A stretch of DNA of 63,939 nt, filler included. It is 5 parts of 5 records of this genome, joined end to end, with 100 filler letters (N's around TTAATTAATTAA, not from the genome) between each part and the next. Parts side by side here need not be neighbours in the genome. Positions count along the whole stretch, not along the records: positions 42,408 to 57,790 come from SRR33789315_4; 4 more parts are not named here. The stretch is one strand, 5' to 3'. The position numbers and the translations under genes are program-made. This document shows, one piece after another, positions 28,942 to 61,908 of the stretch (the stretch's first letter is position 1; each line of letters opens with the position of its first letter). The notes below the pieces were generated by a model that worked only from the letters and a program-made list of their open reading frames with translations, ran no database searches and was not told the DNA's origin.

Positions 28942-29041
28942 NNNNNNNNNNNNNNNNNNNNNNNNNNNNNNNNNNNNNNNNNNNNTTAATTAATTAANNN
29001 NNNNNNNNNNNNNNNNNNNNNNNNNNNNNNNNNNNNNNNNN
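28942..29041. other. Artificial contig linker
   Basis: N44-TTAATTAATTAA-N44 (stops in all six frames). Confidence 0.99.
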
Positions 29042-42307: not shown

Positions 42308-42407
42308 NNNNNNNNNNNNNNNNNNNNNNNNNNNNNNNNNNNNNNNNNNNNTTAATTAATTAANNNNNNNNNNNNNNNNNNNNNNNNNNNNNNNNNNNNN
42401 NNNNNNN
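42308..42407. other. Artificial contig linker
   Basis: N44-TTAATTAATTAA-N44. Confidence 0.99.
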
Positions 42408-42810: not shown

Positions 42811-43956
42811 TTATAACTTAAATATCTGCATTATCTTCATAATATTTAAATCATTTTTCTCCCCTAAAGTATTCATCTTTAGAGCTTTCAGACGAGACAT
42901 CATTTTAAAAGCTAAGTCTGTTCCTACTTCTGGATACGAAGAAAATGAAGTTGGAACCCCAAGGCTCTCGAAAAAATCATCTGTGGCTTTTAACGTACGC
43001 TCAAAGGCAACTTCTGGATCTGAGTCATGAATGTCAAAAACTCTTTGTCCGTACTGGAGCATCTTCTCCATTTTATTCTCTTTTCTTAAACGCATGTTCT
43101 TAGACCATACCAAAGCCAGAGTTCTAGCGTGATCTATTCCATAAATAGAAGTGAGCTGATGACCTAAGGCATGTGTTGACCAGTCACTTTCAACACCAAC
43201 ACCGATTAAATTATTTAATGCCATCGAGGTACACCAAAACATACTTGCTCTATGGTCTAGGTTTTGTGGGTCATTATAAGTTTTAGGGCCAACTTCAATG
43301 AGTGTTTTAAGAATAGATTCACTGAAGCGGTCTTGAAGTGGAGCTGATTGAGGATAAGTTAGATACTGCTCCAACACATGAACATAAGCATCGACAACAC
43401 CATTGCCAATATAATGCTTTGGAAGCGACAGAGTTAGACTAGGATCTAAAATTGAAAATACAGGATAGTTCTTTGAATTAAAGATTCCTACTTTACTGCC
43501 TTTATAACTCATAACAGAGCCTGAATTCATCTCGCTTCCAGTGGCAGGAAGTGTCGAAATGGTCGCAAACGGCATTGGATCAACGGTCTCGGCTTCATTC
43601 TCATTGAGAAGCTCATTGGGTTTACCAGCATACTTTGTAGCAATCGCAATAAATTTGGCACAATCAATAACCGAGCCACCACCAACGGCCAAAATAAAAG
43701 TGATTTTATGATCTTTTACTTTTTGCACGACATCGAGGGCAAAATCGAAATCCGGATTTGGAGTAACACCGGAAGCTTCAACTACATCAAAGCCCTTTAA
43801 GAGTTCAGTGACTTTCTTATAAGTTCCATTGTCTTTAATGCTTTTAGAACCATATAAAAGAAGAATTTTTTCTTTTGGAAGTAATTCGGACAAATTTGAT
43901 AAAGATTGATCACCAAAAATAATTTTAGTGGGATTATGATAAATAAAGCTGTCCAT
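42811..43956 (-). CDS. Iron-containing alcohol/aldehyde dehydrogenase (YqhD/BdhA-like)
   Basis: NPTKIIFG, GGGSVIDCAK, TLPATGSEMN, DWSTH..GH, HA.TL; real start MDSF at 43956 with AGGA RBS. Confidence 0.92.
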   Translation of the reverse strand: MDSFIYHNPTKIIFGDQSLSNLSELLPKEKILLLYGSKSIKDNGTYKKVTELLKGFDVVEASGVTPNPDFDFALDVVQKVKDHKITFILAVGGGSVIDCAKFIAIATKYAGKPNELLNENEAETVDPMPFATISTLPATGSEMNSGSVMSYKGSKVGIFNSKNYPVFSILDPSLTLSLPKHYIGNGVVDAYVHVLEQYLTYPQSAPLQDRFSESILKTLIEVGPKTYNDPQNLDHRASMFWCTSMALNNLIGVGVESDWSTHALGHQLTSIYGIDHARTLALVWSKNMRLRKENKMEKMLQYGQRVFDIHDSDPEVAFERTLKATDDFFESLGVPTSFSSYPEVGTDLAFKMMSRLKALKMNTLGEKNDLNIMKIMQIFKL

Positions 43957-43963
43957 AATTATC

Positions 43964-45028
43964 CTAAAGTAAAATGACGTCTGCGAGACCAACACCATTA
44001 AAGTCATGATTCCAAGCAAGTGAATATCCAGAGATATTATCAAAAATAACATGATCACCAATTGCTAAGTTCAAAGCCGAAGTTAAGTCAGTAATAAGTA
44101 AGCAATCATCTTCATAAGCTGTTTGACCGTAAAACTTAACCTTACCATCAATATTTTGTTGAGAAGACTTTGAATTTGAGAAAATATAAAACGTTGATGG
44201 CCATGACCATTTAAGGTGGGATTCATGTGAGAGATTCGTAAGGATATGTGTACAATCATTTCTCTGTCTAATGGAGAGGACTTTAGCAACGGCATAACTT
44301 GAAGCTTTAAAGAAATAACGTCCAGCTTCTAAAATAATTTGAAAATCTAGGTCTTTTACAAAATCAAATAATTTCTTAAAATCCTCCGTCGAGAATTTAT
44401 TTACACCGCCGCCAATATTAAAAACTTTAACCGTTGGAAGATGAGCCTTGGCGAGCTTAACACATGAACTTATTGAGTCGATTAAGTCTGATACAGTAGT
44501 TTTTTCAAATCCAATATGAAAATGCAATTGAACTATTTTTGATGAAAGACTTTTATCCTGGATAAGTGTTTTGACTTCTTCTTGGGTAAGGCCAAAACGA
44601 CTTTTTTGGGCTTGTTCAAGTTTCAAGTCAGGCTGAACTCGAAGTGAAACTTGTGAAAAGCTCTTGGCTAACTCTGTTTGTTCGATATAACCAAGGTCAA
44701 AGAGATTATTAATTCTTTCGCTACTTTTGTTCATAGGTCTAAAAGAATTTGAAATGAGCAGAGTGTGATCTGGCGATAATGACGGCTCAACGACGCTAAG
44801 CTCATTTTCATTAGATATTTCAAAACCACTTAAATAGGGAGAAATTCTTTTAAGAAAATCAATATTGGGACAAGACTTCACTGGAAAGGTTAACGCAAAG
44901 TTTTTGGGAGCGAGATTCAATAAGTTCTTATAATTCTCAATGATAGTATTACTATCAATAAAGATCGTAGGTGTATCTGGTGTTTTATAGGTCTGGAGCA
45001 AAATTTGTTTTTTTATTAGATTATTCAT
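43964..45028 (-). CDS. Fold-type III PLP enzyme (Orn/DAP/Arg decarboxylase family), divergent
   Basis: FPVKSCP (PLP Lys), SRFG, HFHIG, NIGGG, EAGRY, GQTAYEDD, GYS...FNG. Confidence 0.8.
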   Translation of the reverse strand: MNNLIKKQILLQTYKTPDTPTIFIDSNTIIENYKNLLNLAPKNFALTFPVKSCPNIDFLKRISPYLSGFEISNENELSVVEPSLSPDHTLLISNSFRPMNKSSERINNLFDLGYIEQTELAKSFSQVSLRVQPDLKLEQAQKSRFGLTQEEVKTLIQDKSLSSKIVQLHFHIGFEKTTVSDLIDSISSCVKLAKAHLPTVKVFNIGGGVNKFSTEDFKKLFDFVKDLDFQIILEAGRYFFKASSYAVAKVLSIRQRNDCTHILTNLSHESHLKWSWPSTFYIFSNSKSSQQNIDGKVKFYGQTAYEDDCLLITDLTSALNLAIGDHVIFDNISGYSLAWNHDFNGVGLADVILL

Positions 45029-46758
45029 TTTTTGCTAATTAAAAAATCTCCAAGAAACATGGATTTAATTTTTGTATCATTCATAAAGTCGACAGCATCA
45101 TGAATGGTCTCAAGTATAGGTTTTCCCATGATATTTAAACTCGTATTTAACAGAAGGCCATGACCTTGAAGCTTTTTAACTTCATTTATCAAATCATAAT
45201 AACGTTGATTTTGCTTTCTATTAACAGTTTGGATTCGACATGTTTGATCTACATGAGTGACTTCTGTTAAAAGAGCTGCATATTGAGATTTCACATGTGG
45301 AGCAAATGACATATAAGGCATATGATAATTCTCAGGACAGTCAAAATATTTGTGCGCATCTTCAAGCAATACAGAGCAGCCGTAAGGTCTAAAGCTTTCT
45401 CTGAACTTAATATTATCGTTAAGTTCTTGTTTTCGACCAGCAATTCCAGGAAGACTTAAAATACTTCTGTTTCCAAGTGCTCTTGGGCCACATTCACTTC
45501 TGCCTTGAAACCAAGCGATGATTTCACCTTGAGAAATTAACTTGGCTGCAATTTGAGATGGATTCTCTACTTTTTCGACTTTATGATTAGTAAATAGTTC
45601 TCGAAGTTTTGCTTCGTTATCAATTCCATGAATTGACTTCTTGCTACCAAGATAAGGATTGATATCTTCAACTTTGCTTGGTGAAAATGTTTCAAATCCC
45701 TTTGTAATAGCTTTGTAATAAGCCGTACCAAGGCTTATTCCCTCATCATTTGGACAAGGAGGAATAAAGACGTGATCAAAGAGTTTCTCTTTTACAATTT
45801 TTGAAACAGTCAAACAGTTAAGGGCACATCCACCCATGAGATTTATATTTCTATAATCAGGATAGTTTTTTGTAATATCATGAACACAGGCCATGATTGT
45901 CTCTTCAAAGTAGTCTTGAATACTTCGTGCAAGATTTGCACTTCTTTCAAAATGTGCTGATGGCTGCTCATTAAATGCATTCATGCCTTTGTAGACATGG
46001 CGAGGTTTTTGAAATTCTGAGTGTAGAAATTGGTAATAGTCATTTTCTAGCTTTTGAGACTTCCCATAAGCAGACAAACCCATGACCTTACCTGAATCAG
46101 TCCATGCGCCAAATACATAATTAGCCACAGCGCCATAGAAACTACCAAGTCCTTGATTAAGAAAAATCCCTGGTTTAACGACGGGACAGTATCTTCCCCA
46201 TATTTTCTTAACAAGCTTTAGATTTTGTCCATCTTGAAGATAAACTGAAATTGATTCAAAAACTTTTTCATTTTCATTAGTGTGTATTTTATTTTCGTCA
46301 TCGTTAATGATTTTATTGTAGATATCACCATTAGAGCCAATTCCGTCTGCAACGAGAATGATTGATTTTTCAAAAGGACTAAAATACAAAGCACAATAAG
46401 CATGGGCCAAATGGTGTGAGATTTCAGTGATAGATGGATTAGTCAGTGAAGAGAAGTTTTCTGCGCCAAGGGTCTTAAGCATTTGAGTATAGCTTTTCAT
46501 TTCTAAATATATTTCTTCTTTATGCTTAGCTCCTTGAGCGTAGCTATTAATGGCAAACTGACTTTTATCAGTTAAGAGAATTTTTTTATTTTCAATGATA
46601 AGATTTTTTAAGACATGAATAGGAAAATAGTACTGATTTTTAATTTTACTATAGCGTTCTGATTCATAGACGACTGCTTTTTCAGAGTGACACTGACTAG
46701 AATCAATTACAGCAATACTGGCATCATGACCTACATTTATGCCAACAGATAAACTCAC
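45025..46758 (-). CDS. O-carbamoyltransferase (NodU/CmcH/TobZ family)
   Basis: HDAS, ERY, HHLAHA, DGIG, GKVMGLSAYG, GGCALN, GPRALGNRS, KFRESFRP, LNTSLN. Confidence 0.93.
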   Translation of the reverse strand: MSLSVGINVGHDASIAVIDSSQCHSEKAVVYESERYSKIKNQYYFPIHVLKNLIIENKKILLTDKSQFAINSYAQGAKHKEEIYLEMKSYTQMLKTLGAENFSSLTNPSITEISHHLAHAYCALYFSPFEKSIILVADGIGSNGDIYNKIINDDENKIHTNENEKVFESISVYLQDGQNLKLVKKIWGRYCPVVKPGIFLNQGLGSFYGAVANYVFGAWTDSGKVMGLSAYGKSQKLENDYYQFLHSEFQKPRHVYKGMNAFNEQPSAHFERSANLARSIQDYFEETIMACVHDITKNYPDYRNINLMGGCALNCLTVSKIVKEKLFDHVFIPPCPNDEGISLGTAYYKAITKGFETFSPSKVEDINPYLGSKKSIHGIDNEAKLRELFTNHKVEKVENPSQIAAKLISQGEIIAWFQGRSECGPRALGNRSILSLPGIAGRKQELNDNIKFRESFRPYGCSVLLEDAHKYFDCPENYHMPYMSFAPHVKSQYAALLTEVTHVDQTCRIQTVNRKQNQRYYDLINEVKKLQGHGLLLNTSLNIMGKPILETIHDAVDFMNDTKIKSMFLGDFLISKK

Positions 46759-47012
46759 TCAAAAAAACCTAGCTTTTTAAACTCTTCGATTGTTTCTGTT
46801 ACAAAAGTATTAACTTCCGAATCAGACTTGCTTGGAAGTTTTGACTTAATATCCGTATTAATTTCCGCAGTTGATTTTTCTTGAGAAATAAGTTGAAAAA
46901 CATGAGCAACAGACTTTTCTAGCGTATAAACATTATTGTCATCATCAAGTTTTAAAACCTTAATTTCGTTTTCGTTGATTTGATTAAAAGCAATATTTGA
47001 ACTTAGTTTCAT
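46755..47012 (-). CDS. Stand-alone PqqD-family protein / RiPP recognition element (85 aa)
   Basis: Start MKLSS at 47012 with AAGGA RBS; beta-beta-beta then helices pattern (VLKLDDDNNVYTL...VFQLI...EI...FVTETIEEFKKLGFFE). Confidence 0.75.
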   Translation of the reverse strand: MKLSSNIAFNQINENEIKVLKLDDDNNVYTLEKSVAHVFQLISQEKSTAEINTDIKSKLPSKSDSEVNTFVTETIEEFKKLGFFE

Positions 47013-47085
47013 TGTTAATCCTTTATGATGAGATAAATAGCTTAACTTTAAACCTGTGCATTTTAAAGCATAAGTACGTGTTTTT

Positions 47086-47739
47086 TTAAAAAGGGTATTG
47101 GCCACTAAGAAAGGTAGTTAAAGTAATTCTGCGTCCTGTTTCTATCGTGGTGACTCTGTGTGGCAATATCGAAGGGAAATAGACGACATCGCCTTTAGCC
47201 TTAAGAGGAACTTTTAGCCAAAATCCAAAGGCATTTTGAATTTCGAGTTGGCCCCCAGTGTAGTCTTTTCCTAGTTCAGACATATGAATGACCTGAGTTA
47301 AAAGTCGGCCCATTTTTGAGTCATCTGGAGATGGATCTTTGTCTCCTCTAGATCTCACGCCATCATTATGCTCGCCGATATAACCGCCTTGATTGAACGT
47401 CACGAACTCATACGGATCAAGTCTAGTCAGTGGAGCGAATTTCCATTTTTGGGCATTAGTGCCTACAAGAAGACTTTCGAGACTTTGATCAAGCCATAGA
47501 AGTTCTTTATTGTAATAGGTGACACTATTATTTGAAGCCGTCGATTCTAATTGCAGCTTATGACCATCTTTATCTTTTTGCTCATATTGGCTTTTATAAA
47601 GGGGAACTGGTTTTGAGTCATAGTTAATCTTAAGACTATCAAGTTTTTCAATAGTTTCAGGCTGGATACAATTAGGAATATAATGGAAAGGTATTTTAAA
47701 GTTTAAAAATTCTTTCCAAAACAGTAGATCTTCGTTCAT
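47086..47739 (-). CDS. 2OG-Fe(II) oxygenase (prolyl-4-hydroxylase-like)
   Basis: HND (HxD), YTGGQL, GDVVYFPS..PHRV...GRR.T. Confidence 0.9.
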   Translation of the reverse strand: MNEDLLFWKEFLNFKIPFHYIPNCIQPETIEKLDSLKINYDSKPVPLYKSQYEQKDKDGHKLQLESTASNNSVTYYNKELLWLDQSLESLLVGTNAQKWKFAPLTRLDPYEFVTFNQGGYIGEHNDGVRSRGDKDPSPDDSKMGRLLTQVIHMSELGKDYTGGQLEIQNAFGFWLKVPLKAKGDVVYFPSILPHRVTTIETGRRITLTTFLSGQYPF

Positions 47740-47755
47740 AAGATTTTTGGAACTA

Positions 47756-47929
47756 TTATTTTCTTCTTCTTCTTCTTCTTCTTGCAGCTGCCATTAAGTC
47801 GACATCGAAGTATTCATTCAGATTTTCGCTAACAATGCGACCAAACTCTCGAAAGTCTTTGTGAACTTTAAGTTCACTTGGCTTTTCTGTATTTGTTGAC
47901 GCTTGCTTTGTTTCTTTTTTGTTACTCAT
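47756..47929 (-). CDS. Candidate RiPP precursor peptide A1 (57 aa, poly-Arg C-terminus)
   Basis: MSNKKETKQASTNTEKPSELKVHKDFREFGRIVSENLNEYFDVDLMAAARRRRRRRK*; ATG 47929 preferred over TTG 47941; paralog adjacent. Confidence 0.8.
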   Translation of the reverse strand: MSNKKETKQASTNTEKPSELKVHKDFREFGRIVSENLNEYFDVDLMAAARRRRRRRK

Positions 47930-48098
47930 CTCTAACCCCAAATTGACCCTGTAAATAATCTTATAACGATATCTAAGATATAGTATAAAAGTTATTTAAA
48001 CTATTGAAAATCACACTACTAACTCTAGAACTATATGCCCATTTTCATTGGCTTCTTTTATCTAGTTAGACGATGCTTAGATCTATTGAAAGAGGCAA

Positions 48099-48275
48099 TT
48101 ATCTTTTTCTTCTTCTTCTTCTAGCAGTTGCAGCAAGATCGACATCAAAATATTCATTAAGATTTTCACTGACAATTCGACCGAAGTCATTGAAATCCTT
48201 GTGAATCTTAATTTCTGAAGCTTGAGATTTGGTCTCAGTTGCTAGGGTTTTAGAATTCTTATCATTTTTCTTCAT
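48099..48275 (-). CDS. Candidate RiPP precursor peptide A2 (58 aa, poly-Arg C-terminus), not in ORF track
   Basis: Hand translation MKKNDKNSKTLATETKSQASEIKIHKDFNDFGRIVSENLNEYFDVDLAATARRRRRKR*; 24/28 identical to A1 over the central motif. Confidence 0.8.
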   Translation of the reverse strand: MKKNDKNSKTLATETKSQASEIKIHKDFNDFGRIVSENLNEYFDVDLAATARRRRRKR

Positions 48276-48451
48276 ATACCAGGTCCCTATAAATCGTTTA
48301 GTGACTAAAATAACAAATTTATTAGTATTTATCTCTATCTAATAATTATAACCGAGTATCGCAATACACCTAATCTTTTCAACTTAATTTTTGTTTAATT
48401 TCTAAAAATCAAGTACTTCGCTTATCATAAGAGCTTAAATCGAGGAAAACG

Positions 48452-49645
48452 ATGAAAAGTTTAAGCCAATATTTTAAGGAGCGAGATGGAGCCTTGTCGC
48501 GATTTGGTGAAAGGTACGGGCTCGTCACACAGCTGCCATGTGTCAATTTGGCGAATTTCTACGCCCAACTTAAAAAATTAACTATTGATCTCGCTATTCC
48601 AGTGATGACAAATTTTGAAAATGAGTATGTTCAATACTTTGGTATAGAGCTTTATAGTCGATATCAAAGGCAGGGACACCTTATAAAGGATAAGAGAACC
48701 TTCTCTAAATTATATTCCCAAGACTTCAATCCAAATACTGACCATGAGCTGTTCTTTACTACGAATTGCCAATCAGCTCACTTTGGCCTGCTGCACGCTC
48801 TTAAGGCCTGCTTCCCCAAAGCGAGTCTCTTTAAGCCAACTGAGAAGTTGTATTTTGAATCGACCTATATACTAGAAAGGTATGAGGAAATTTTTAGTAG
48901 TAATAACTCGAATGAAACGATTGTCTTTCTAGACAGTACTTTTATTACTCGTGAGGAGCTCTTTTGTTTCGAAGAAGTTGACTCATGTGTCGCTATAATA
49001 TTTGATACGACATGCTTTGATCGACAATCTTCTCTCATCACTGATGTTGTAAGAAAAGCTCAGGAAAAAGCAATCCCCCTCATACTAACAAGAAGTCATT
49101 TGAAACTGGACTCTCTTGGCACTGAGTACGGCCCTTTGGGTTCAATCTTATTTCTCAATCAAGAGGAAGACTTAATTAAGAAGACTTGTTTTGAATATAT
49201 TTCTCATATGGGCGCATTTGCGACTATTTCACAGATTTATCCTTTTATCTTTGATCAGTCTCTAAAAGACATTGCATCTTTGAGAGTTGAAATGATTCAG
49301 GAGAATACTAAAAAGATATTCAATGGAGTCTATGAAGAAAATTGTCAGTCTGGCTTCTATCACCCAGAGCGCCTACATGGGCTTCATAATGTCTTTGTTT
49401 ACGATAGGGATAAAGTTAACTTTTATAAATTAGCAGAGAAGTTTGTCGCATTATCGAAGGTCTATAACGTTGAGTCTAAGTTTTGCGATAGCTTTGGATT
49501 TGATTTCTTTAGCCTAACAAATGTTGAATCGTGTGATTCTCTCAATAGAGGTTTTTTAAGATTCTGTAGTAGCATTAAGGCTGATGAAGTTGATGGATCA
49601 GTAAATGTCATTCGCTCTCTCGTTAAACAAATTGAAAAGACTTAA
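48452..49645 (+). CDS. Divergent fold-type I PLP-dependent enzyme (trans-sulfuration/lyase-like)
   Basis: IIFDTT (cf. DNT) followed by SHLK (SxxK), then LDSLG.EYG.LGS and C-terminal SFGF...LRF; GAGG RBS. Confidence 0.6.
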   Translation: MKSLSQYFKERDGALSRFGERYGLVTQLPCVNLANFYAQLKKLTIDLAIPVMTNFENEYVQYFGIELYSRYQRQGHLIKDKRTFSKLYSQDFNPNTDHELFFTTNCQSAHFGLLHALKACFPKASLFKPTEKLYFESTYILERYEEIFSSNNSNETIVFLDSTFITREELFCFEEVDSCVAIIFDTTCFDRQSSLITDVVRKAQEKAIPLILTRSHLKLDSLGTEYGPLGSILFLNQEEDLIKKTCFEYISHMGAFATISQIYPFIFDQSLKDIASLRVEMIQENTKKIFNGVYEENCQSGFYHPERLHGLHNVFVYDRDKVNFYKLAEKFVALSKVYNVESKFCDSFGFDFFSLTNVESCDSLNRGFLRFCSSIKADEVDGSVNVIRSLVKQIEKT

Positions 49646-49647
49646 CC

Positions 49648-52065
49648 ATGAAGAAATTAGACGCTCTAACATCAGTCAATATTTTGAAAGAGAGAGTAGA
49701 ACTCTGGGCCTCAAAGAACGCTATCGATAATTATATTTTCTTAGAATCTTTTAATCTACCAACGAAAGAGCAACTTAAAAATAGAAAAATTGCATTTTTG
49801 TTTGGCGACTTTATCGCTTGTTTTGCTTATTTAAACGAAAATAAGACACAAGTTGAAAAAGTCTATGTTCTCTGCCGTAAAGCAAAACGCATGATAGATA
49901 ATTGTAAAGAGGGCAAAGATATTGAAGTTGAAGTTATAGACCGTTATGATTTATTTAAGAAAGCAAAAATTGGAAATATTTTTCCGAATTTAATGAATGA
50001 TAAAGTCCGATTGGTTTATGCCGGCCGAATAACTCGCTCCAAAAATATCACAATATTCCTTCGACTTGCTAATCAATTACAAAAGGTGAATCCACATATT
50101 AGCGTTCAAATATTCGGCGAGTATGATGACTTTCTTAATATAGACTTTAACGGCAAAAAAATGGTTTATAGTTACCAGACTGAAGTTGAAAAATGTATAA
50201 ATGAGCTAGAATGGAGTCAACCGCCTTCAATAACACATGAGATTTCAGCGACTCAATGGCCGTTACTTTTAGAAAAACAAGATCTCGTTGTTAATTTATC
50301 AACCTATTGGATGGATGATTTTTCTGTTGCTATTGCCCAGGCGCAGGAAATCGGAATTCCGATTCTTTGTACCGATATTGGCGGTTTAAGTGATGTCAGC
50401 GCAAATAATGTCGTTAAGCTTCCGTCTTTTTTGCTCGATTCTGAATTTGTAAATCCCAGCACAGAAGTAGACTCTATAAAGGCGCAAAATATTCTTGAAT
50501 ACATAAAAGTGAACAAAGACTTAAGCCCAGAAAGTATGCCTCACGAAGCGCTTAGTTATAAACTACCTGAATTTAAAAACTTAAAGCTTAATCAAGCTTT
50601 TGATTTCAAAAACACAGTCGAAGGCAGAGCTTTTTTTAAAAAATATTTTGAAGTTTGGAATCACACCGCACATCCATCAAAGAAAATCCTTTTTTTAGTT
50701 TCAGGTGAGCAAAATCATTGGTTGAGTCTTCAGACTATTTCAGAGCATATTAAACATTTTTGGCTTGCTTATCAGCAAAATGGATATGCTTTGGAAATGG
50801 TCAACGTCGATGAGGCGTTGGATAAGAAATATGTCTCACGTTTAAAGTCTTATGATTTAATTGTGGCGCCATCGTTGAGTTTAAATACGATCAAAGTAAT
50901 GAAATTAATAAGAAATACTTTTGGGCTTAAAACTCCGTTTGTTTCTTATGTTCATGAACTTCCTTCGACTTTCTTTTCGGCACTTAAACTTAGAGGGCTG
51001 ACTGATATCTTTACAAAAGACGATATAATGGTTGTTCAATGTGAATCTGACTTAAAACTGGCGAAACTTTCATTTGAAAATATTAATGTCCAAATGATTC
51101 CTTCGTGTTTTTCTAGTGATAAAGGTATCCAGCCTGAAAAATATAATATTAAAAACTTATTTTACATCGGCAGAATTAGTGAACAAAAAGGTTTGCACTT
51201 TCTTTTTTGGAGTTTGAGCCTAATTAAGCAGAAACTAACTCAAGGAAATATAAAAGTTAATATCTATGGGGTTCATGATCATCTTGGTATGCCTAATTGG
51301 GGTGACGGTGGTGGACTTTATTTGGATTTTCTTGGTGATTTAATTCAAGAGCTAGGATTAGAGGAATTGATTAGCTTTCATGGTTTTAGCTCAAAGCCGA
51401 ATTGGGGCGACTATGTTAAAAGCAAGCAAGGGGCAGGAATTTTTCCAAGTCTCCATAGTGATGAGAATTTTGGTGTTGCTCCATTTGATTTGCTGAATGA
51501 AGGGATTCCAGTTCTATTAACAAAATGGGGTGGGTATCAAGATCTAGCAAATCATTACAATCCTTTGGTGAAAAACAATAATGTTTATCTGTCCTCTAAA
51601 GGTCCGTACATTGACCCCAATGAAATGGCACAAAATATCTTAAACTTTGTTGAAACCGACTTATCAAATATTCCATCGTTTAAACCTAAACTGGATATTA
51701 ATGAATGGGTTAAAAGTGTAAGTTTTAAGACTAACGAAAGTAATAAGCCATTAATCTTTTCTAAGATTTCTAATGAGCTAATGGGTAAGATTAGATTTTC
51801 CTCGAATATTTCCCTTAAAGCTCGTGGCTGGGCACTAAATGGCGTGATGTACTCTGGTCCAAATGATCCAAATTATCTTATTGCTTGTGAAAGTTATGGC
51901 GCAGTTAAAAATAGTAATCTAGTTGAAGAAAGTTATATTATGGCCCCATGGGTGAAAAATACTGAGGATGGATTTGACGTTAGTGATCCGATTAAAGGAC
52001 GTTTTACTGTAAAGGATCTTGATTCACTATTCGAACTTGGTTTAGCTTTTAAAAAACTATTTTAA
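49648..52065 (+). CDS. Glycosyltransferase with two GT4/GT-B donor-binding domains
   Basis: YAGRITRSKN...DDFSVAIAQAQEIGIPILCTDIGG and YIGRISEQKG...ENFGVAPFDLLNEGIPVLLTKWGG. Confidence 0.8.
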   Translation: MKKLDALTSVNILKERVELWASKNAIDNYIFLESFNLPTKEQLKNRKIAFLFGDFIACFAYLNENKTQVEKVYVLCRKAKRMIDNCKEGKDIEVEVIDRYDLFKKAKIGNIFPNLMNDKVRLVYAGRITRSKNITIFLRLANQLQKVNPHISVQIFGEYDDFLNIDFNGKKMVYSYQTEVEKCINELEWSQPPSITHEISATQWPLLLEKQDLVVNLSTYWMDDFSVAIAQAQEIGIPILCTDIGGLSDVSANNVVKLPSFLLDSEFVNPSTEVDSIKAQNILEYIKVNKDLSPESMPHEALSYKLPEFKNLKLNQAFDFKNTVEGRAFFKKYFEVWNHTAHPSKKILFLVSGEQNHWLSLQTISEHIKHFWLAYQQNGYALEMVNVDEALDKKYVSRLKSYDLIVAPSLSLNTIKVMKLIRNTFGLKTPFVSYVHELPSTFFSALKLRGLTDIFTKDDIMVVQCESDLKLAKLSFENINVQMIPSCFSSDKGIQPEKYNIKNLFYIGRISEQKGLHFLFWSLSLIKQKLTQGNIKVNIYGVHDHLGMPNWGDGGGLYLDFLGDLIQELGLEELISFHGFSSKPNWGDYVKSKQGAGIFPSLHSDENFGVAPFDLLNEGIPVLLTKWGGYQDLANHYNPLVKNNNVYLSSKGPYIDPNEMAQNILNFVETDLSNIPSFKPKLDINEWVKSVSFKTNESNKPLIFSKISNELMGKIRFSSNISLKARGWALNGVMYSGPNDPNYLIACESYGAVKNSNLVEESYIMAPWVKNTEDGFDVSDPIKGRFTVKDLDSLFELGLAFKKLF

Positions 52066-53052
52066 AAACTCAAGCCCTTCTGGATGAACGTCTCTTCTCC
52101 ATAAAAAAGAATCAATCGTAAAATGAGTTAGTACAATTGTTAACAATAGCGATCTAATGATTATATTACCGTTTGCAAAGTTCCTGACTTCTACCTCGGT
52201 ATAACTTAACAGCATTGTACAGATAATTAGAAAAGGTAGCATAAGTTTTGGGGAAGATAGTAAAGCGATGAAACGTTCGCCTTTTCCAGTTCTACTGGCG
52301 ACATACTTTTTCCCAAGGAAAAGGTAGGGGGTTGAGTGGCCAAAGACTAAGAGTAATAGACCGAATACTGCAGCTTTTGGAAAAGGCTCAAGACGATAAA
52401 TAATCCAAATAAGAGCACCATTGATCAGATGAAAGTGCTTTCCCCAGTTAACCTTCTTTTCCTTAGAGTATTCTAGTATTTCCTTAATAAGATAAGAGAT
52501 TATTGATACACCTGCGATAACCCATACTGGATATTTGAGATAGTTAGGTAGGACAATAAGATCAGCATCTGTGCGCCATCCACTTTTACCAATACCTTCC
52601 ATCATCGAAAGTAGTGCGGGACCTGCAATAAAACTATAAATGGTAATTTTATCGATCAGACGAGAAAGTGATGACCTTTGTTGTCTTGCAGCTGAAATAA
52701 AGAACCAGGCTGTTTGCTGTTTAATAAAATGAAAAATTGAGTAATGAGCAAGTAGCATGCTCACATAAATAGGTTTTCCAAATTCGTACATAGATAAAAG
52801 AATACAAAAAATAGTTATCGGTATAAGGGCTAGTAGGATTTTGAATTTCTTTGAAAACCTATCCGATCCGTAGGTATAAAAATATGTCGTATAGACATGG
52901 GGTTGATCGTGAAGAACATACATCCAGAAATAATCCCCAAAATCATTAATGAAAAATCCTATAGTGATAGCAATTAATGTAGAGCCACCAAAGATGAGAA
53001 GATCATCTTTCTTTCCAAAGACCCATCTTTTATCAACTGCACTACTGTTCAT
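52057..53052 (-). CDS. Multi-pass membrane protein with conserved His motifs (paralog 2)
   Basis: DQPHVYTTY, FHFIKQQ, FGHS.PY, HFTIDSFLW. Confidence 0.75.
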   Translation of the reverse strand: MNSSAVDKRWVFGKKDDLLIFGGSTLIAITIGFFINDFGDYFWMYVLHDQPHVYTTYFYTYGSDRFSKKFKILLALIPITIFCILLSMYEFGKPIYVSMLLAHYSIFHFIKQQTAWFFISAARQQRSSLSRLIDKITIYSFIAGPALLSMMEGIGKSGWRTDADLIVLPNYLKYPVWVIAGVSIISYLIKEILEYSKEKKVNWGKHFHLINGALIWIIYRLEPFPKAAVFGLLLLVFGHSTPYLFLGKKYVASRTGKGERFIALLSSPKLMLPFLIICTMLLSYTEVEVRNFANGNIIIRSLLLTIVLTHFTIDSFLWRRDVHPEGLEFLK

Positions 53053-54073
53053 TGATAATCTTCTTTCTTAAAAACTCTAGACCTTCTTTATGAGTGTCGG
53101 TTTTCCACATAAAGGTATCAATCAGAAAATGGCTGAATATAATTCCAAGCCAAATACTAGGAACAATTCCATCGGCGTAAAATGCTTTTTCACTTATAAC
53201 TTCTATATAGCTAATAAGAATACCTAGCATGACAACGATAATTGCCATGAGTTTAAGGTTCTTAATCCCTGGCCAAAAATTTTCTTTTTCTTTTCGGCTC
53301 TCATAATATCTAAGACCAAGGTAGATATAAGGAAAGGAGTGACCGAAAACAACTAAGAGTTGTCCAGCCATTGATAAGCTTCCTACCGTTGCAAATCGAT
53401 AGATTCCCCAAATAATGAGAGCATTAAGTAGATGAAAGTTTTTACCCCAAGTAATAACTTTGAACTTATTAAATTTATAAATCTGAATAGCAATATAGAA
53501 TAGCCATGAAACAATCATCAGAACAAAAATGGGAGTTTTAAAGGCGAGAGGAACTTGTATAAGGTCTCCTGCTGAGCGCCAACCACTTCTACCAAAAGAG
53601 TCAGTCATGGATATAAGCAAAGGCCCAGCAACACTTAATTGTACAACCGCTTTATCAACATAGTTTTCAAGCTTTCTATTTTGAATAAGAACCTTTTCTT
53701 TACCTTTAGTAATGTAAAACCAAGCTGATTGTTGTTTGGCAAAGTGAAAAGCTGAGAAATTGCTTAAAACAGCATAAGCGAAATCATCTCCTAGATTGAC
53801 AAACATAAGGTAGGAAAGAGTGAAGCAAATAATCGGTAAGGCAATGAGAGGGATTCTAAACTGTTTATTAAACCGATCAGATGTATAGGTGTAGAAGTAT
53901 GTTGTAAAAACATGGGGTTGATCAAAGAGAATAAACATCCAAAAATAGCTGGTGAAATCTTTTATAAATAACGAGGCTAGTAAAGCGATGGCAGTAGAAC
54001 CTGCAAATAACCATAGGTCTTCTTTGATACTAAAAACCCATTGAGATTGAGTTGGCTTCAGCTGCTTAATCAT
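53042..54073 (-). CDS. Multi-pass membrane protein with conserved His motifs (paralog 1)
   Basis: DQPHVFTTY, FHFAKQQ, FGHS.PY, HFLIDTFMW. Confidence 0.75.
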   Translation of the reverse strand: MIKQLKPTQSQWVFSIKEDLWLFAGSTAIALLASLFIKDFTSYFWMFILFDQPHVFTTYFYTYTSDRFNKQFRIPLIALPIICFTLSYLMFVNLGDDFAYAVLSNFSAFHFAKQQSAWFYITKGKEKVLIQNRKLENYVDKAVVQLSVAGPLLISMTDSFGRSGWRSAGDLIQVPLAFKTPIFVLMIVSWLFYIAIQIYKFNKFKVITWGKNFHLLNALIIWGIYRFATVGSLSMAGQLLVVFGHSFPYIYLGLRYYESRKEKENFWPGIKNLKLMAIIVVMLGILISYIEVISEKAFYADGIVPSIWLGIIFSHFLIDTFMWKTDTHKEGLEFLRKKIINEQ

Positions 54074-54590
54074 TTTTAATCACGGGTAATAAAATCTGCG
54101 TTCTTAATTTGTCTTGAGACACTTCCATTGGAGAGTTTAAATAGAGCTCATATGGTATTCCATCAGGTACAAGATGATTTTCTTCGACCCATTGATTGAG
54201 CTCAACATATCCATTTTTTATTTTAGAATAGCTTCCATGGATATTATTAATCGCTACATTTTGGTCATTAAGTTCAATGAGCTTAAATTCTGGATTTGAT
54301 GTTTTTGTGTACTTTGACGCTTGAAATCCTGCTTGAAAAACAGTTTTATTTTCATTCTGCTCAATGACTCTAAAAAAACCAATAGCTCCCTTACTAATTT
54401 TTAAGTCATCTATCTCTTTAAAAGCATCACTAATGTTCTTAATAGTGAAAGAATTTACTTGATACTCTTTAACTAAAAAATAGTGATACTTTGGTGGTTT
54501 TAATTCGAATTGTTGATCTTCTAAAAGTGTCGCTAGAATAAACCCAATAAAGATAATGAATGTTCCTGTGACAATGAGCTTATTTTTCAT
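54066..54590 (-). CDS. GyrI-like small-molecule-binding protein with N-terminal TM anchor
   Basis: HGSY..I...Y..L..W, PYELYLNSP......LRTQI.LPV. Confidence 0.85.
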   Translation of the reverse strand: MKNKLIVTGTFIIFIGFILATLLEDQQFELKPPKYHYFLVKEYQVNSFTIKNISDAFKEIDDLKISKGAIGFFRVIEQNENKTVFQAGFQASKYTKTSNPEFKLIELNDQNVAINNIHGSYSKIKNGYVELNQWVEENHLVPDGIPYELYLNSPMEVSQDKLRTQILLPVIKND

Positions 54591-54606
54591 TCTATTAGCA
54601 TAAATT

Positions 54607-54631
54607 AAAAAGCCCTTGTTTCAAGGGCTTT
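54607..54631 (-). terminator. Terminator after bfr
   Basis: AAAGCCCTTG-TTT-CAAGGGCTTT; U-tract on the minus strand. Confidence 0.75.
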
Positions 54632-54657
54632 AAATAAAAAAACATTTTTAGTCGGGC

Positions 54658-55134
54658 TTATTCCTTCATAACGATTTGAGACTGCATATAATTTTGAAGA
54701 CCAACTTTAGAAATAAGCTCTTGTTGAGTCTCTAACCAGTCAATATGCTCTTCTTCGCTTGCTAGAATGGACTCAAAAAGATCGCGAGAGACATAATCAC
54801 GTTCTTCCTCGCAAACCTTAATACAATCTTTTAAAAGAGGGATGGCAATATATTCAACTTTAAGATCAGCTGCAATGACCTCTTCAAGAGTTTGACCAAT
54901 ATCAAGCTTGTCTAGCTTTTGAAGATTAGGAAGTCCTTCCAAGAATAAAATACGCTTGATCAATTCATCAGCATGTTTCATTTCATCAATAGAGGCTTTA
55001 TATTCAAGCACACCAAGTTTTTCTAGTCCCCAGTTTTGTAGCATTCTGGCGTGAAGAAAATACTGGTTGATAGCAGTCAATTCTCTAGTAAGAACTGAAT
55101 TAAGGGCATCGATAACTTTTTGTGAACCTTTCAT
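54658..55134 (-). CDS. bfr: Bacterioferritin
   Basis: MKG, ELTAINQYFLHARM, IDEMKHAD, RILFLEGLPN, EEEHIDWLE. Confidence 0.97.
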   Translation of the reverse strand: MKGSQKVIDALNSVLTRELTAINQYFLHARMLQNWGLEKLGVLEYKASIDEMKHADELIKRILFLEGLPNLQKLDKLDIGQTLEEVIAADLKVEYIAIPLLKDCIKVCEEERDYVSRDLFESILASEEEHIDWLETQQELISKVGLQNYMQSQIVMKE

Positions 55135-55227
55135 AGAACGAACTCCAATAATGAATAATGGCAGTAGTTTACACTGAAGAATGAGTCGTCACAATCAGAG
55201 TATTGTTTGATTTAGGGAACGTTGGTT

Positions 55228-55428
55228 TTAAGACTTAGACGGATTTGAATTATTAGTCTTAGGAGACTGATCAATTGATGAACTTAGCCTGTCGATAGCG
55301 TCCATAACGCATATACCACAGCCACTTCCAACACCTAAGTGTGAAAGTGCGTCCTTACCTGTCAGGCCCTTAGAGACGACATTCTTGACTTGATCTTCAG
55401 TAATGTTGTTGCAAATACAGACGTACAT
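55228..55428 (-). CDS. bfd: Bacterioferritin-associated ferredoxin
   Basis: MYVCICN...GCGIC; upstream of bfr. Confidence 0.9.
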   Translation of the reverse strand: MYVCICNNITEDQVKNVVSKGLTGKDALSHLGVGSGCGICVMDAIDRLSSSIDQSPKTNNSNPSKS

Positions 55429-55688
55429 AAACCCTCTGGATGAATTATACACTAACTGTTCGGCTGATCAAACTTTTTCTTGAGTGTGCTATCAAATATT
55501 TATACTGCTATACAAAATCCTTAGAAAACAATGGTTTGGAACGATGCGCAGGTTTACTTCGTCTTATTAAAACTGCGATTAAATTACGGGTTCCAGCTCG
55601 AAATGGCTCTTTCTTGAGCTAGTCGGATGATCATGATTTAAGTAACATGGGGGTGTTTTTTAGTCTTATATAATGTTGCGGAGCCCTA

Positions 55689-56954
55689 ATGCTAGACCTA
55701 AAGTTTATTCGTGAAAATCCTGAAGCAGTTAAAAAAGCAATCGTACAAAAGAAAGTAGGATTAGATCTTGATGAATTACTTAAGCAAGACCAAGTCGTTC
55801 TCAAACTCAAGCAACAGGCGCAAGAGCTGCAAGAAAAGAGAAATGCTCATTCTAAAAAAATCCCAAAAGCAACAAATGAAGAAAGACCCGCTCTCATTGA
55901 AGAGGGACGTAAAATTGGTTCAGATCTAGATGCTATGAAGCCAATGCTTAATGAGGAAGAAGAAAAATTAAAACAACTCCTCTATTTAGTACCAATGATT
56001 CCGTCTCCTGAAGCACCAATTGGTAAAGATGACTCAGAAAACGTTGAAGTTAAAAAAGCTGGAAAACTACCAGAATTTTCATATAAGCCATTAGATCACG
56101 TCGAGCTTCTTGATAAAAATAATTGGGCCGAGTTTGAAAAAGTTGCAACAGTATGTGGTTCTCGCTCGTATAGTCTTCGAAATGAAATGGTTCTACTTGA
56201 AATGGCCGTCCATCGTATGGCACTCGATATTTTACAGAAGAAAGGATTTACGCTGGCAAGTTTTCCTGCCATGGTTCGTGAACATGCGCTTTATGGTTCA
56301 GGACATTTTCCTGCTGGTCGCGATCAAGTCTATTACCTTCCTGAGCAAGATCTTTATTTATCTGGAACGGCAGAAGTTCAGGCAAATTCACTTCATACAG
56401 GTGAAATGCTAGATGAAAAACAGTTGCCAATTCTATATGCCGGCTACTCACCATGCTTTAGAAGTGAAGCCGGAAGTTACGGTAAGGATGTGCGTGGTTT
56501 GATTCGCGTTCATCAATTCATGAAAGTCGAGCAATATATTCTTTGTAAGAATGACGAAGAAGAATCAAAAAAATGGCATAAAAAACTTTTAGAAACTTCA
56601 GAAGAAATAGTAAACGCCTTAGAGCTTCCATACCGTATTGTTGAAGTTTGCACCGGTGATATGGGAGCTGGTAAGGTTCGTATGTACGACGTTGAATGTT
56701 GGGTTCCTTCTGAAGAGAAGTACCGTGAAACACATTCATGTTCATCACTTCATGACTGGCAAGCCCGTAGAAGTAATCTTCGTTATAGAAATAATGAAGG
56801 TAAAGTTGAATATGTTCATACATTGAATAATACGGCCGTTGCTACGCCTAGAATCTTGGTAAGTTTAATAGAGTGTCATCAAAACGAAGACGGATCTGTA
56901 ACTATACCTAAAGCTCTTCAGCCTTATATGGGCGGAGTTTCAAAGATAGGCTAG
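55689..56954 (+). CDS. serS: Serine--tRNA ligase
   Basis: MLDLKFIREN, GTAE, FRSEAG, RVHQF, YRETHSCS, HTLN. Confidence 0.97.
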   Translation: MLDLKFIRENPEAVKKAIVQKKVGLDLDELLKQDQVVLKLKQQAQELQEKRNAHSKKIPKATNEERPALIEEGRKIGSDLDAMKPMLNEEEEKLKQLLYLVPMIPSPEAPIGKDDSENVEVKKAGKLPEFSYKPLDHVELLDKNNWAEFEKVATVCGSRSYSLRNEMVLLEMAVHRMALDILQKKGFTLASFPAMVREHALYGSGHFPAGRDQVYYLPEQDLYLSGTAEVQANSLHTGEMLDEKQLPILYAGYSPCFRSEAGSYGKDVRGLIRVHQFMKVEQYILCKNDEEESKKWHKKLLETSEEIVNALELPYRIVEVCTGDMGAGKVRMYDVECWVPSEEKYRETHSCSSLHDWQARRSNLRYRNNEGKVEYVHTLNNTAVATPRILVSLIECHQNEDGSVTIPKALQPYMGGVSKIG

Positions 56955-57790: not shown

Positions 57791-57890
57791 NNNNNNNNNN
57801 NNNNNNNNNNNNNNNNNNNNNNNNNNNNNNNNNNTTAATTAATTAANNNNNNNNNNNNNNNNNNNNNNNNNNNNNNNNNNNNNNNNNNNN
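57791..57890. other. Artificial contig linker
   Basis: N44-TTAATTAATTAA-N44. Confidence 0.99.
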
Positions 57891-61808: not shown

Positions 61809-61908
61809 NNNNNNNNNNNNNNNNNNNNNNNNNNNNNNNNNNNNNNNNNNNNTTAATTAATTAANNNNNNNNNNNNNNNNNNNNNNNNNNNNNNNNNNNN
61901 NNNNNNNN
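61809..61908. other. Artificial contig linker
   Basis: N44-TTAATTAATTAA-N44. Confidence 0.99.

Follow-up and report, generated by a model that had tools for sequence, protein, structure and literature searches.

A probable RRE-dependent RiPP-type gene cluster family in Bacteriovoracia with a fold-I PLP enzyme as candidate class-defining enzyme

The window analysed here is a stretch of 63,939 nucleotides, within which a 15,383-bp contig (42408–57790) carries a whole eleven-gene cluster; its host resembles, by sequence, the predatory marine bacterium Halobacteriovorax. The cluster encodes two short precursor peptides (A1 and A2), a stand-alone RiPP recognition element (RRE), two pyridoxal 5′-phosphate (PLP) enzymes and further tailoring proteins. 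It is very probably an RRE-dependent system of the type that makes peptides synthesized on the ribosome and modified after translation (RiPPs). It works like an RRE-dependent RiPP pathway, fits no named class tested and could prove to be a new class. The cluster family is real and conserved, and apparently undescribed; its candidate class-defining enzyme is a fold-I PLP protein, here termed PLP1, and the poly-arginine tail of the window's precursors is a local speciality of this wider family. All eleven open reading frames that an earlier, sequence-only reading had claimed were found in place:

43964–45028, minus strand: fold-III (group IV) PLP decarboxylase-like enzyme (DC3); PF02784 above cut-off.
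45025–46758, minus strand: TobZ/NodU/CmcH-type carbamoyltransferase (CT), 577 aa; PF02543 and PF16861 above cut-off.
46755–47012, minus strand: stand-alone RRE/PqqD-like protein, 85 aa; profile match to TbiB1.
47086–47739, minus strand: 2-oxoglutarate (2OG)-Fe(II) oxygenase; PF13640 above cut-off, motifs H124-x-D126, H194 and R204.
47756–47929, minus strand: precursor A1, 57 aa, a paralogue of A2; end AAARRRRRRRK (seven Arg and one Lys).
48099–48275, minus strand: precursor A2, 58 aa; leader DFxxFGRI...YFDVD and Arg-rich core, end ATARRRRRKR; leader under purifying selection.
48452–49645, plus strand: fold-I PLP enzyme (PLP1), from an AlphaFold model and structure matches; a family without annotation related to cystathionine gamma-synthase and gamma-lyase (CGS/CGL).
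49648–52065, plus strand: twin-GT4 glycosyltransferase (GT); two PF00534 stretches above cut-off, the halves aligning at E 1e-6.
52057–53052, minus strand: multi-pass membrane protein M1; conserved H52, H108, H239, H310 and D314.
53042–54073, minus strand: M2, an M1 paralogue (43% identical), from a homologue alignment.
54066–54590, minus strand: GyrI-like small-molecule-binding domain after an N-terminal hydrophobic helix; PF06445 above cut-off, hydropathy.

Pfam and NCBIfam gave nothing above cut-off for the RRE, PLP1, M1 and M2; the assignments made for these proteins from the letters alone hold, through the TbiB1 profile match, the fold-I model and the conserved His residues, respectively. 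For none of the 11 genes did the Pfam and NCBIfam matches include a class-defining enzyme of the lanthipeptide, YcaO, radical SAM, lasso or MNIO type. The proposal of a RiPP-like cluster with real precursors and an RRE, and without a known class-defining enzyme, is supported.

The precursors are real genes, because nine synonymous and no non-synonymous changes separate A1 from A2 across 17 leader codons. Of 1186 stop-bounded frames of at least 25 aa in the window, eight end with at least four Arg in ten residues, and an unbroken run of at least five Arg occurs only in A1 and A2. The A1 tail consists of AGA codons only, but AGA is the commonest Arg codon, accounting for 40 of the 90 in seven genes, and codon use in related tails is mixed (AGA, CGT, CGC and CGA), which indicates that selection acts on Arg. 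A protein search with A1 as single query returned four proteins, the window's A2 among them, and none of 600 pattern matches to A1 in genome contigs was confirmed. Relatives of the cluster were reached via PLP1, not via A1. Short precursors with a conserved leader and a variable core number 54, in 15 lineages grouped by hand; leaders are duplicated up to four times, and cores are hypervariable. A leader hidden Markov model (HMM) detected precursors in 18 PLP1 genomes, eight of them outside its alignment, and four more were read by eye. The leader profile, run without a positive control, found nothing in five genomes whose PLP1 has no precursor nearby. A precursor placed between an RRE gene and LanC-like and LanB genes at another locus (L160) matched the leader HMM at E 9e-4, and the conserved sequence is predicted to be a RiPP leader. 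That locus (L160:9286-13607) is itself a lanthipeptide-like cluster with the same leader type, comprising the RRE, a Cys/Ser-rich precursor, a LanC-like protein, a LanB N-terminal domain and a JmjC protein.

A second RRE system of Bacteriovoracia was also observed (L149:1766-2275, L151:1757-2236 and L145:776-1237; wider context in L152–L154). Here a similar leader, DFGG...YLDVFA, is fused directly to a Peptidase_S74 self-cleaving chaperone domain, and the core amounts to one or two residues only. Beside it lie radical SAM/SPASM genes together with an RRE and a carbamoyltransferase, with DegT and an ABC-2 exporter in one case. This Peptidase_S74-fused leader system looks undescribed.

The RRE assignment rests on profile comparison. 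A profile of 22 RRE homologues matched the lasso RRE TbiB1 at E 3e-5, followed by PqqD-family proteins, TfuB1 and lasso B1 at E 0.1–1, and PF05402 was matched below cut-off by three of the homologues. When the RRE was co-folded with A1, the score was 0.44 versus 0.03 for the best control; contacts agreed to at least 88% between runs, and the partner reached a predicted local distance difference test (pLDDT) value of at least 54. Of the solved pairs, 51 of 78 reached the mark applied, as did 2 of 108 mismatched pairs. Profile matches to the RRE occur in 98 of 238 Bacteriovoracia genomes. The RRE gene adjoins that of the CT in most loci (L001–L003, L005, L007, L010–L012, L017, L018 and L076) and abuts PLP1 in five (L006, L014, L079, L082 and L083).

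PLP1 is present in 26 of the 238 Bacteriovoracia genomes, and in these 26 we counted the RRE in 23, CT in 18, DC3 and GT4 in 15 each, M1/M2-type proteins in nine, the window-type 2OG oxygenase in three and the GyrI-like gene in two. These counts cover DNA up to 20 kb around PLP1, often ended by contig edges, with two contigs pooled for G173, G220 and G181, and they used HMMs built partly from the same loci. Among the 18 genomes with CT, 17 carry the RRE and the same number have a precursor, detected by HMM in 15 and by eye in two; G215 is the exception. Gene order is shuffled among loci. The synteny, whose recurrence had been proposed as a check, is found again in related genomes. The claim that the cluster is built on poly-arginine is not supported: one of the outcomes that the sequence-only reading had named as refuting, homologous enzyme sets without such a peptide, was observed, as the homologous precursors lack the Arg tail in 14 of the 17 genomes that have both CT and a precursor. 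Poly-Arg tails occur in only three of the 26 PLP1 genomes, whose PLP1 proteins form one clade with that of the window (support 100, quick tree); likewise, the 15 of 54 precursors with at least four Arg in the last ten residues all belong to one clade. The window-type 2OG oxygenase and the GyrI-like gene are clade-specific extras.

Outside the poly-Arg clade, cores are rich in Ala, Pro or acidic residues and keep one Lys/Arg near the C-terminus; examples of core ends are SAAARS, AAAAAKE, FSTARD, VYSKLAPIEP... and PLDPLNKK. A Lys or Arg lies within the last 12 residues in 53 of 54 precursors. About 12 of the 14 lineages without poly-Arg have exactly one, where 3.6 would be expected from neighbouring proteins and 5.1 from a Poisson distribution with the same mean (P 2e-4). 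With windows of 10 and 15 residues the single-Lys/Arg test gave P 9e-3 and 6e-3, and Lys/Arg was the only one of 13 residue classes with P < 0.01 in all three windows. Five precursors from a separate PLP1 clade, which lacks DC3 and CT, are not part of these counts. Lys and Arg swap at one position between the sister loci L017 and L018.

PLP1 belongs to a family of 412 representatives at 50% identity that has no Pfam model. Its AlphaFold model (pLDDT 89.5) shows fold I, and Foldseek with this model found cystathionine gamma-lyases and synthases at E 7e-8. In VIA-align, nine of the ten top rows were named CGS, CGL, cystathionine beta-lyase (CBL) or sulfhydrylase (Z 18.8–20.7, root mean square deviation 4.0–4.5, about 310 residues). 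The Arg-cyclising enzymes GntC, MppP and RohP scored Z 17.2, 17.5 and 17.2, compared with 20.7 for CGS, a shared fold showing no function. Sequence searches with PLP1 alone and with a 35-sequence profile found no solved relative; a 137-sequence profile reached solved CBL/CGS sequences at E 2e-5. PF01053 gave no match in PLP1 at E 0.1 and did not reach its gathering threshold, and Atlas neighbours of PLP1 carry PF01053. Five residues (Y71, D185, S215, K218 and R370) are invariant across 137 aligned members, and three more (R73, Y134 and S347) almost invariant. By E. coli MetB numbering, these residues are the ones that bind PLP together with the Arg/Ser pair that holds the substrate α-carboxylate. 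Because these CGS-type residues are kept, the PLP-bound substrate of PLP1 is probably a free amino acid.

PLP1 and DC3 also travel together outside Bacteriovoracia-type clusters. They occur together in L013:3033-11484 (Sphingomonas pituitosa) and L034:1891-10708 (a metagenome contig), each with an Arg-Ser-ending peptide, ThiF, a SBP_bac_5 peptide-binding protein, a B12 radical SAM protein, a 2OG oxygenase and a GNAT protein; these are candidate RiPP clusters. The gene set parallels MccB/MccD/MccE of microcin C, with PLP1 putatively replacing MccD. The ThiF protein of L034 has an N-terminal extension, to which the RRE profile gave no match (probability 0.2). A third locus, L015, encodes a peptide ending in AHRC, PLP1, an MFS protein and a truncated DC3 (E 5e-20). 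A grouping of L015 with Cys cores was dropped, as the tree (quick method, long branch) and the truncated DC3 place it in the PLP1 plus DC3 set. In L016, DC3 adjoins PLP1 and no precursor was found.

PLP1 is rare elsewhere, occurring in 3 of 301 genomes in the phylum of G240 and 1 of 301 in the Sphingomonas family; among 401 Alphaproteobacteria there were 22 PLP1 matches, three strong and the rest partial and weak. Separately, five loci (L084–L088) form a distinct PLP1 clade with Cys-containing cores, GT2, JmjC/2OG-like oxygenases and mostly an RRE, without CT or DC3; all five precursors contain Cys. A role of this Cys as PLP1 nucleophile was set aside, because GT2 (and a radical SAM protein at one locus) could equally explain it.

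CT matched NovN, GdmN and TobZ in the PDB at E 1e-40 to 1e-47 and comprises Kae1-like and YrdC-like domains, in which the catalytic His, HHxAH, Asp ligands and K-x-R are kept (24 homologues); the NodU equivalog cut-off was not reached (138 of 1000 bits). DC3 keeps PLP Lys51 and the HxH, GGG and E-x-G-R motifs, and its best NCBIfam matches were lysA and then nspC, each far below cut-off. At the position of the catalytic Cys it has Ala304; in 24 homologues this position is Cys in 15, Ala in eight and Val in one. The best NCBIfam matches of the twin GT4 were exopolysaccharide/lipopolysaccharide (EPS/LPS) GT4 families, all far below cut-off. The 2OG oxygenase has the HxD...H triad, and this orthologue is restricted to the poly-Arg clade (3/26 genomes). 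M1 and M2 share three invariant and one nearly invariant His across 29 homologues; these four His probably form a metal site within a membrane bundle of helices. In these 29 members there was no Pfam match above cut-off, Foldseek found no match at E 0.001, Atlas neighbours are without names, and the best VIA Z was 6.8, with many weak rhodopsin-like rows; a Brp/Blh-like or a protease function would be conceivable for the pair. The GyrI-like protein (2/26 genomes) is accessory, with a possible product-binding or self-protection role. A protein of 330–365 aa was additionally seen in several family clusters (L075:6731-7735, L079:14059-15153, L082:13406-14491 and L156:3326-4423) and fused to CT in L076:12735-15374; it has no Pfam or NCBIfam match where checked and was grouped by similar N-termini and position only.

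On these grounds we tentatively propose, as the best of the mechanisms considered, a scheme drawn by analogy with known enzymes. The conserved target would be the basic residue near the precursor C-terminus, which the Halobacteriovorax clade would have multiplied into a poly-Arg tail. RRE-guided PLP1 would place an aminocarboxypropyl group on this Lys/Arg. DC3 would then decarboxylate the appendage, following the logic of Mur24/Mur23 and MccD/MccE: a fold-III decarboxylase requires a free α-amino acid unit, and an aminocarboxypropyl appendage would supply one. Carbamoylation, hydroxylation and glycosylation would come last. With slightly less confidence, the clusters might represent a new RiPP class defined by a CGS-like PLP protein that N-alkylates Lys/Arg of a leader-bearing peptide and, with DC3 and CT, yields aminopropyl- or ureidopropyl-Lys/Arg glycopeptides. 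The module would be portable between the CT/GT clusters of Bdellovibrionota and the ThiF/B12-radical-SAM clusters of proteobacteria, and the poly-Arg products would be multivalent. Of the mechanism in the sequence-only reading, hydroxylation of the Arg tail followed by O-carbamoylation and/or glycosylation, the RiPP frame stands; the mechanism itself omits both PLP enzymes, the most conserved part.

Several observations weigh against the proposed scheme. The data concern genes, families, active-site residues, co-occurrence and the Lys/Arg pattern, from which we infer every chemical step. Guanidinium is a poor nucleophile, and one family would have to alkylate amines and guanidines alike. The presence of at least one Lys/Arg in the last 12 residues has P about 0.1 and is true of 86% of 383 neighbouring proteins too; the single-residue statistic is post hoc, with lineages grouped by hand; and the basic residue could instead mark where a protease cuts, or be what CT acts on. 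Five PLP1 loci of the separate clade lack DC3 and CT, and three of their five cores have no Lys/Arg in the last 12 residues. All six DC3 sequences of the poly-Arg clade have Ala for the catalytic Cys, so the DC3 reaction may differ in this clade. The co-folding pass of the RRE with A1 is weak, as at scores of 0.60 or below only 5 of 78 solved pairs pass, together with all four passing mismatches, and the score may come from likeness to solved RRE–leader complexes. Neither a peptidase nor an exporter was recognised among the 11 cluster genes by Pfam and NCBIfam. PLP1 homologues stand alone on the two Bradyrhizobium plasmid regions examined, and in L008 and L009, where neither the RRE nor the leader was matched, PLP1 occurs with a divergent aspartate transcarbamylase (ATCase)-like carbamoyltransferase and MATE. 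Finally, Mur24 is described as ACC-synthase-like (PMC10491745); PLP1 is closest to CGS/CGL.

The L008/L009 arrangement is possibly a small-molecule pathway. In L009:9818-13260, PLP1 is followed by the divergent ATCase-like carbamoyltransferase and a MATE exporter; its sister locus L008 comes from genome G240, in which there are five transcarbamylase matches. This unrelated second carbamoyltransferase, from a single lineage, hints that the PLP1 product or substrate is N-carbamoylated.

Other explanations account for parts of these data. The peptide might act as a scaffold from which units are released: the 2OG enzyme would hydroxylate Arg on the peptide, CT would O-carbamoylate and GT glycosylate the hydroxyl, and proteases would free single units, whereupon PLP1 would eliminate the activated hydroxyl, possibly forming an enduracididine- or capreomycidine-like ring, and DC3 would decarboxylate, with poly-Arg as multi-copy feedstock. 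Both PLP enzymes do look suited to free amino acids, DC3 belongs to the ornithine/lysine/arginine/diaminopimelate decarboxylase family, which fits Lys/Arg, and at least 8 of 18 CT-type loci have some 2OG type at or near them (chosen neighbours scanned). By the same scan, no 2OG enzyme was noticed at the other 10, PLP1 lies nearer CGS/CGL (Z 20.7) than GntC, MppP and RohP (17.2–17.5), the RRE abutting PLP1 in five loci suggests that PLP1 meets a leader-bearing peptide, and cyclic guanidines are impossible from single-Lys cores. The order of hydroxylation and then carbamoylation or glycosylation, which the sequence-only reading shared, has a RiPP precedent in crocagin, where dioxygenase hydroxylation is followed by CT, or by GT in related clusters, some of which add a decarboxylase (PMC10070186). 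On balance we consider release of modified units somewhat unlikely.

Less probable again is that the leader-dependent CT acts directly on the basic side chain, converting Lys to homocitrulline and Arg to carbamoyl-Arg, while the acceptor for an aminopropyl-type unit made or attached by PLP1 and DC3 would be a different one, such as the sugar, the C-terminus or a small molecule. The RRE and CT genes share a 4-nt overlap in the window and adjoin each other in 11 named relatives' loci, StdF, a NodU-like CT, carbamoylates Lys of a RiPP (PMC13174530), and the PLP1 cores without DC3/CT often lack Lys/Arg, so that the basic residue may track CT. Against this, L013 and L034 combine PLP1, DC3 and a penultimate Arg with no CT in the DNA fetched; L015 likewise lacks CT, but ends at a contig edge. 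The enzymes might, by contrast, not make a RiPP at all: what they decorate might be LPS, another surface glycan or a protein, for example flagellin, the peptides being regulatory or incidental. NodU/TobZ enzymes usually carbamoylate sugars, the best NCBIfam matches of the GT are the EPS/LPS families mentioned above, and a related RRE locus (L153) adjoins ABC-2 exporter and DegT genes. We judge this very improbable, as 17 of 18 CT-type genomes have both precursor and RRE alongside the enzymes, and duplicated leaders carry hypervariable cores, with the same leader type feeding a lanthipeptide cluster.

The gene layout within the window is compact. RRE and CT, and CT and DC3, overlap by 4 nt; PLP1 and GT are separated by 2 nt; and GT/M1, M1/M2 and M2/GyrI overlap by 8–11 nt. 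Promoter and terminator counts were at the shuffled level (39 versus 39.2 and 6 versus 5.9, respectively). The closest relative, L001, comes from a metagenome-assembled genome of an uncultured Halobacteriovorax, with the order from the YqhD-like gene to serS identical to the window; Bfr and SerS are 98% identical between the two, and cluster proteins 67–94%. An empty-site test found the YqhD-like gene beside bfr at 0 of 30 bfr loci, with cluster genes there only in G001 and G002, and no clean insertion site. Sequencing run X1 covers all 30 bins, with both precursors on one contig; repeat letters were passed over, however, and the run is possibly the source sample itself.

The YqhD-like Fe-alcohol dehydrogenase gene (42811–43956) lies on the strand of DC3, starting 7 nt past its stop, and the two may be co-transcribed; this adjacency also occurs in L001–L003, L021, L023 and L024. 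A role of the YqhD-like reductase in handling an aldehyde from the Cys-less DC3 was considered and found unsupported, as the gene lies beside poly-Arg-clade clusters only and is conserved more like the host backbone. Compared with window positions 43964–56954, L024 has Bfr 98% and SerS 99% identical, yet its cluster proteins are only 28–67% identical and mostly no closer to the window than those of L002, although Bfr and SerS of L002 are 89% identical. This pattern suggests cassette exchange at the yqhD–bfr site. L024 additionally has a second CT and one membrane paralogue. Elsewhere in the window, paired runs of 44 N join contigs at 28942–29041, 42308–42407, 57791–57890 and 61809–61908. The window mixes organisms, since by eye the end of the piece before 42308 holds atpD/atpC-like genes and the gene of a secreted protein whose C-terminal sorting domain is Bacteroidota-like.

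The family gives a testable function to the 412 representatives of a PLP enzyme group without a Pfam model. If the proposed scheme is true, leader-controlled alkylation of a peptide side chain by a PLP enzyme would be new to RiPP chemistry, and it might serve as a tool to tag Lys/Arg site-specifically, because cores tolerate almost any flanking sequence. If units are instead released from a peptide scaffold, the clusters would be a ribosomal route to modified arginine small molecules. More broadly, the predatory Bacteriovoracia hold many RRE–leader systems that are largely unstudied. No description of this cluster family was found in the literature, which was covered without most subscription journals. 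One paper notes RRE–carbamoyltransferase fusions and leaves Bacteriovoracia unmentioned in its main text; its supplements could list these RREs (PMC12710340).

Among known systems, the CGS/CGL family (PF01053; PDB 9vsm, 7nl1 and 2cb1) resembles PLP1 in fold, PLP lysine, dimer Tyr-x-Arg, Asp and α-carboxylate Arg; PLP1 differs in sharing only 10–14% identity and in forming a separate family without annotation that sits in peptide clusters. For the pairing of the two PLP enzymes, a parallel is muraymycin, in which Mur24 catalyses PLP-dependent aminocarboxypropyl transfer to an amine by γ-elimination/addition and the fold-III decarboxylase Mur23 is able to act on such a conjugate (PMC10491745, PMC11350588); there, however, the substrate is a nucleoside and a precursor peptide is absent. 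Microcin C shares the addition of an aminocarboxypropyl group to a RiPP by MccD and its trimming by MccE, a group-IV PLP decarboxylase (PMC10491745, PMC11350588, PMC12250964), and ThiF, DC3 and GNAT accompany PLP1 in L013 and L034. MccD, in contrast, has a methyltransferase fold and a phosphoramidate substrate, whereas the donor enzyme proposed here is a CGS-like PLP protein that occurs with an RRE, CT and GT. Pfam found no ThiF/MccB in the window's cluster, only in the relatives L013 and L034, and the precursors lack the C-terminal Asn of the microcin C type, A1 ending in Lys and A2 in Arg.

The carbamoyltransferase has RiPP parallels in two further pathways. Crocagin (CgnC/CgnI) is a RiPP with dioxygenase hydroxylation and a carbamoyltransferase; in related clusters a GT takes its place, in some cases with an added decarboxylase (PMC10070186). 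It is built on an aromatic Tyr/Trp core with the peptide-binding proteins CgnB/CgnE and the protease CgnD, whereas the window has a PqqD-type RRE, basic cores free of Trp and Tyr in both A1 and A2, and a fold-I PLP enzyme. In the std cluster, the NodU-like StdF acts on a basic residue of a RiPP core, together with hydroxylation (PMC13174530). That system uses YcaO-TfuA, an MNIO and an S8-fused CT, and its abstract and Discussion name no PLP pair or GT; the CT of the window consists of two CT domains only. StdF is counted there as only the second RiPP carbamoyltransferase (PMC13174530), and the family described here would be a third such context.

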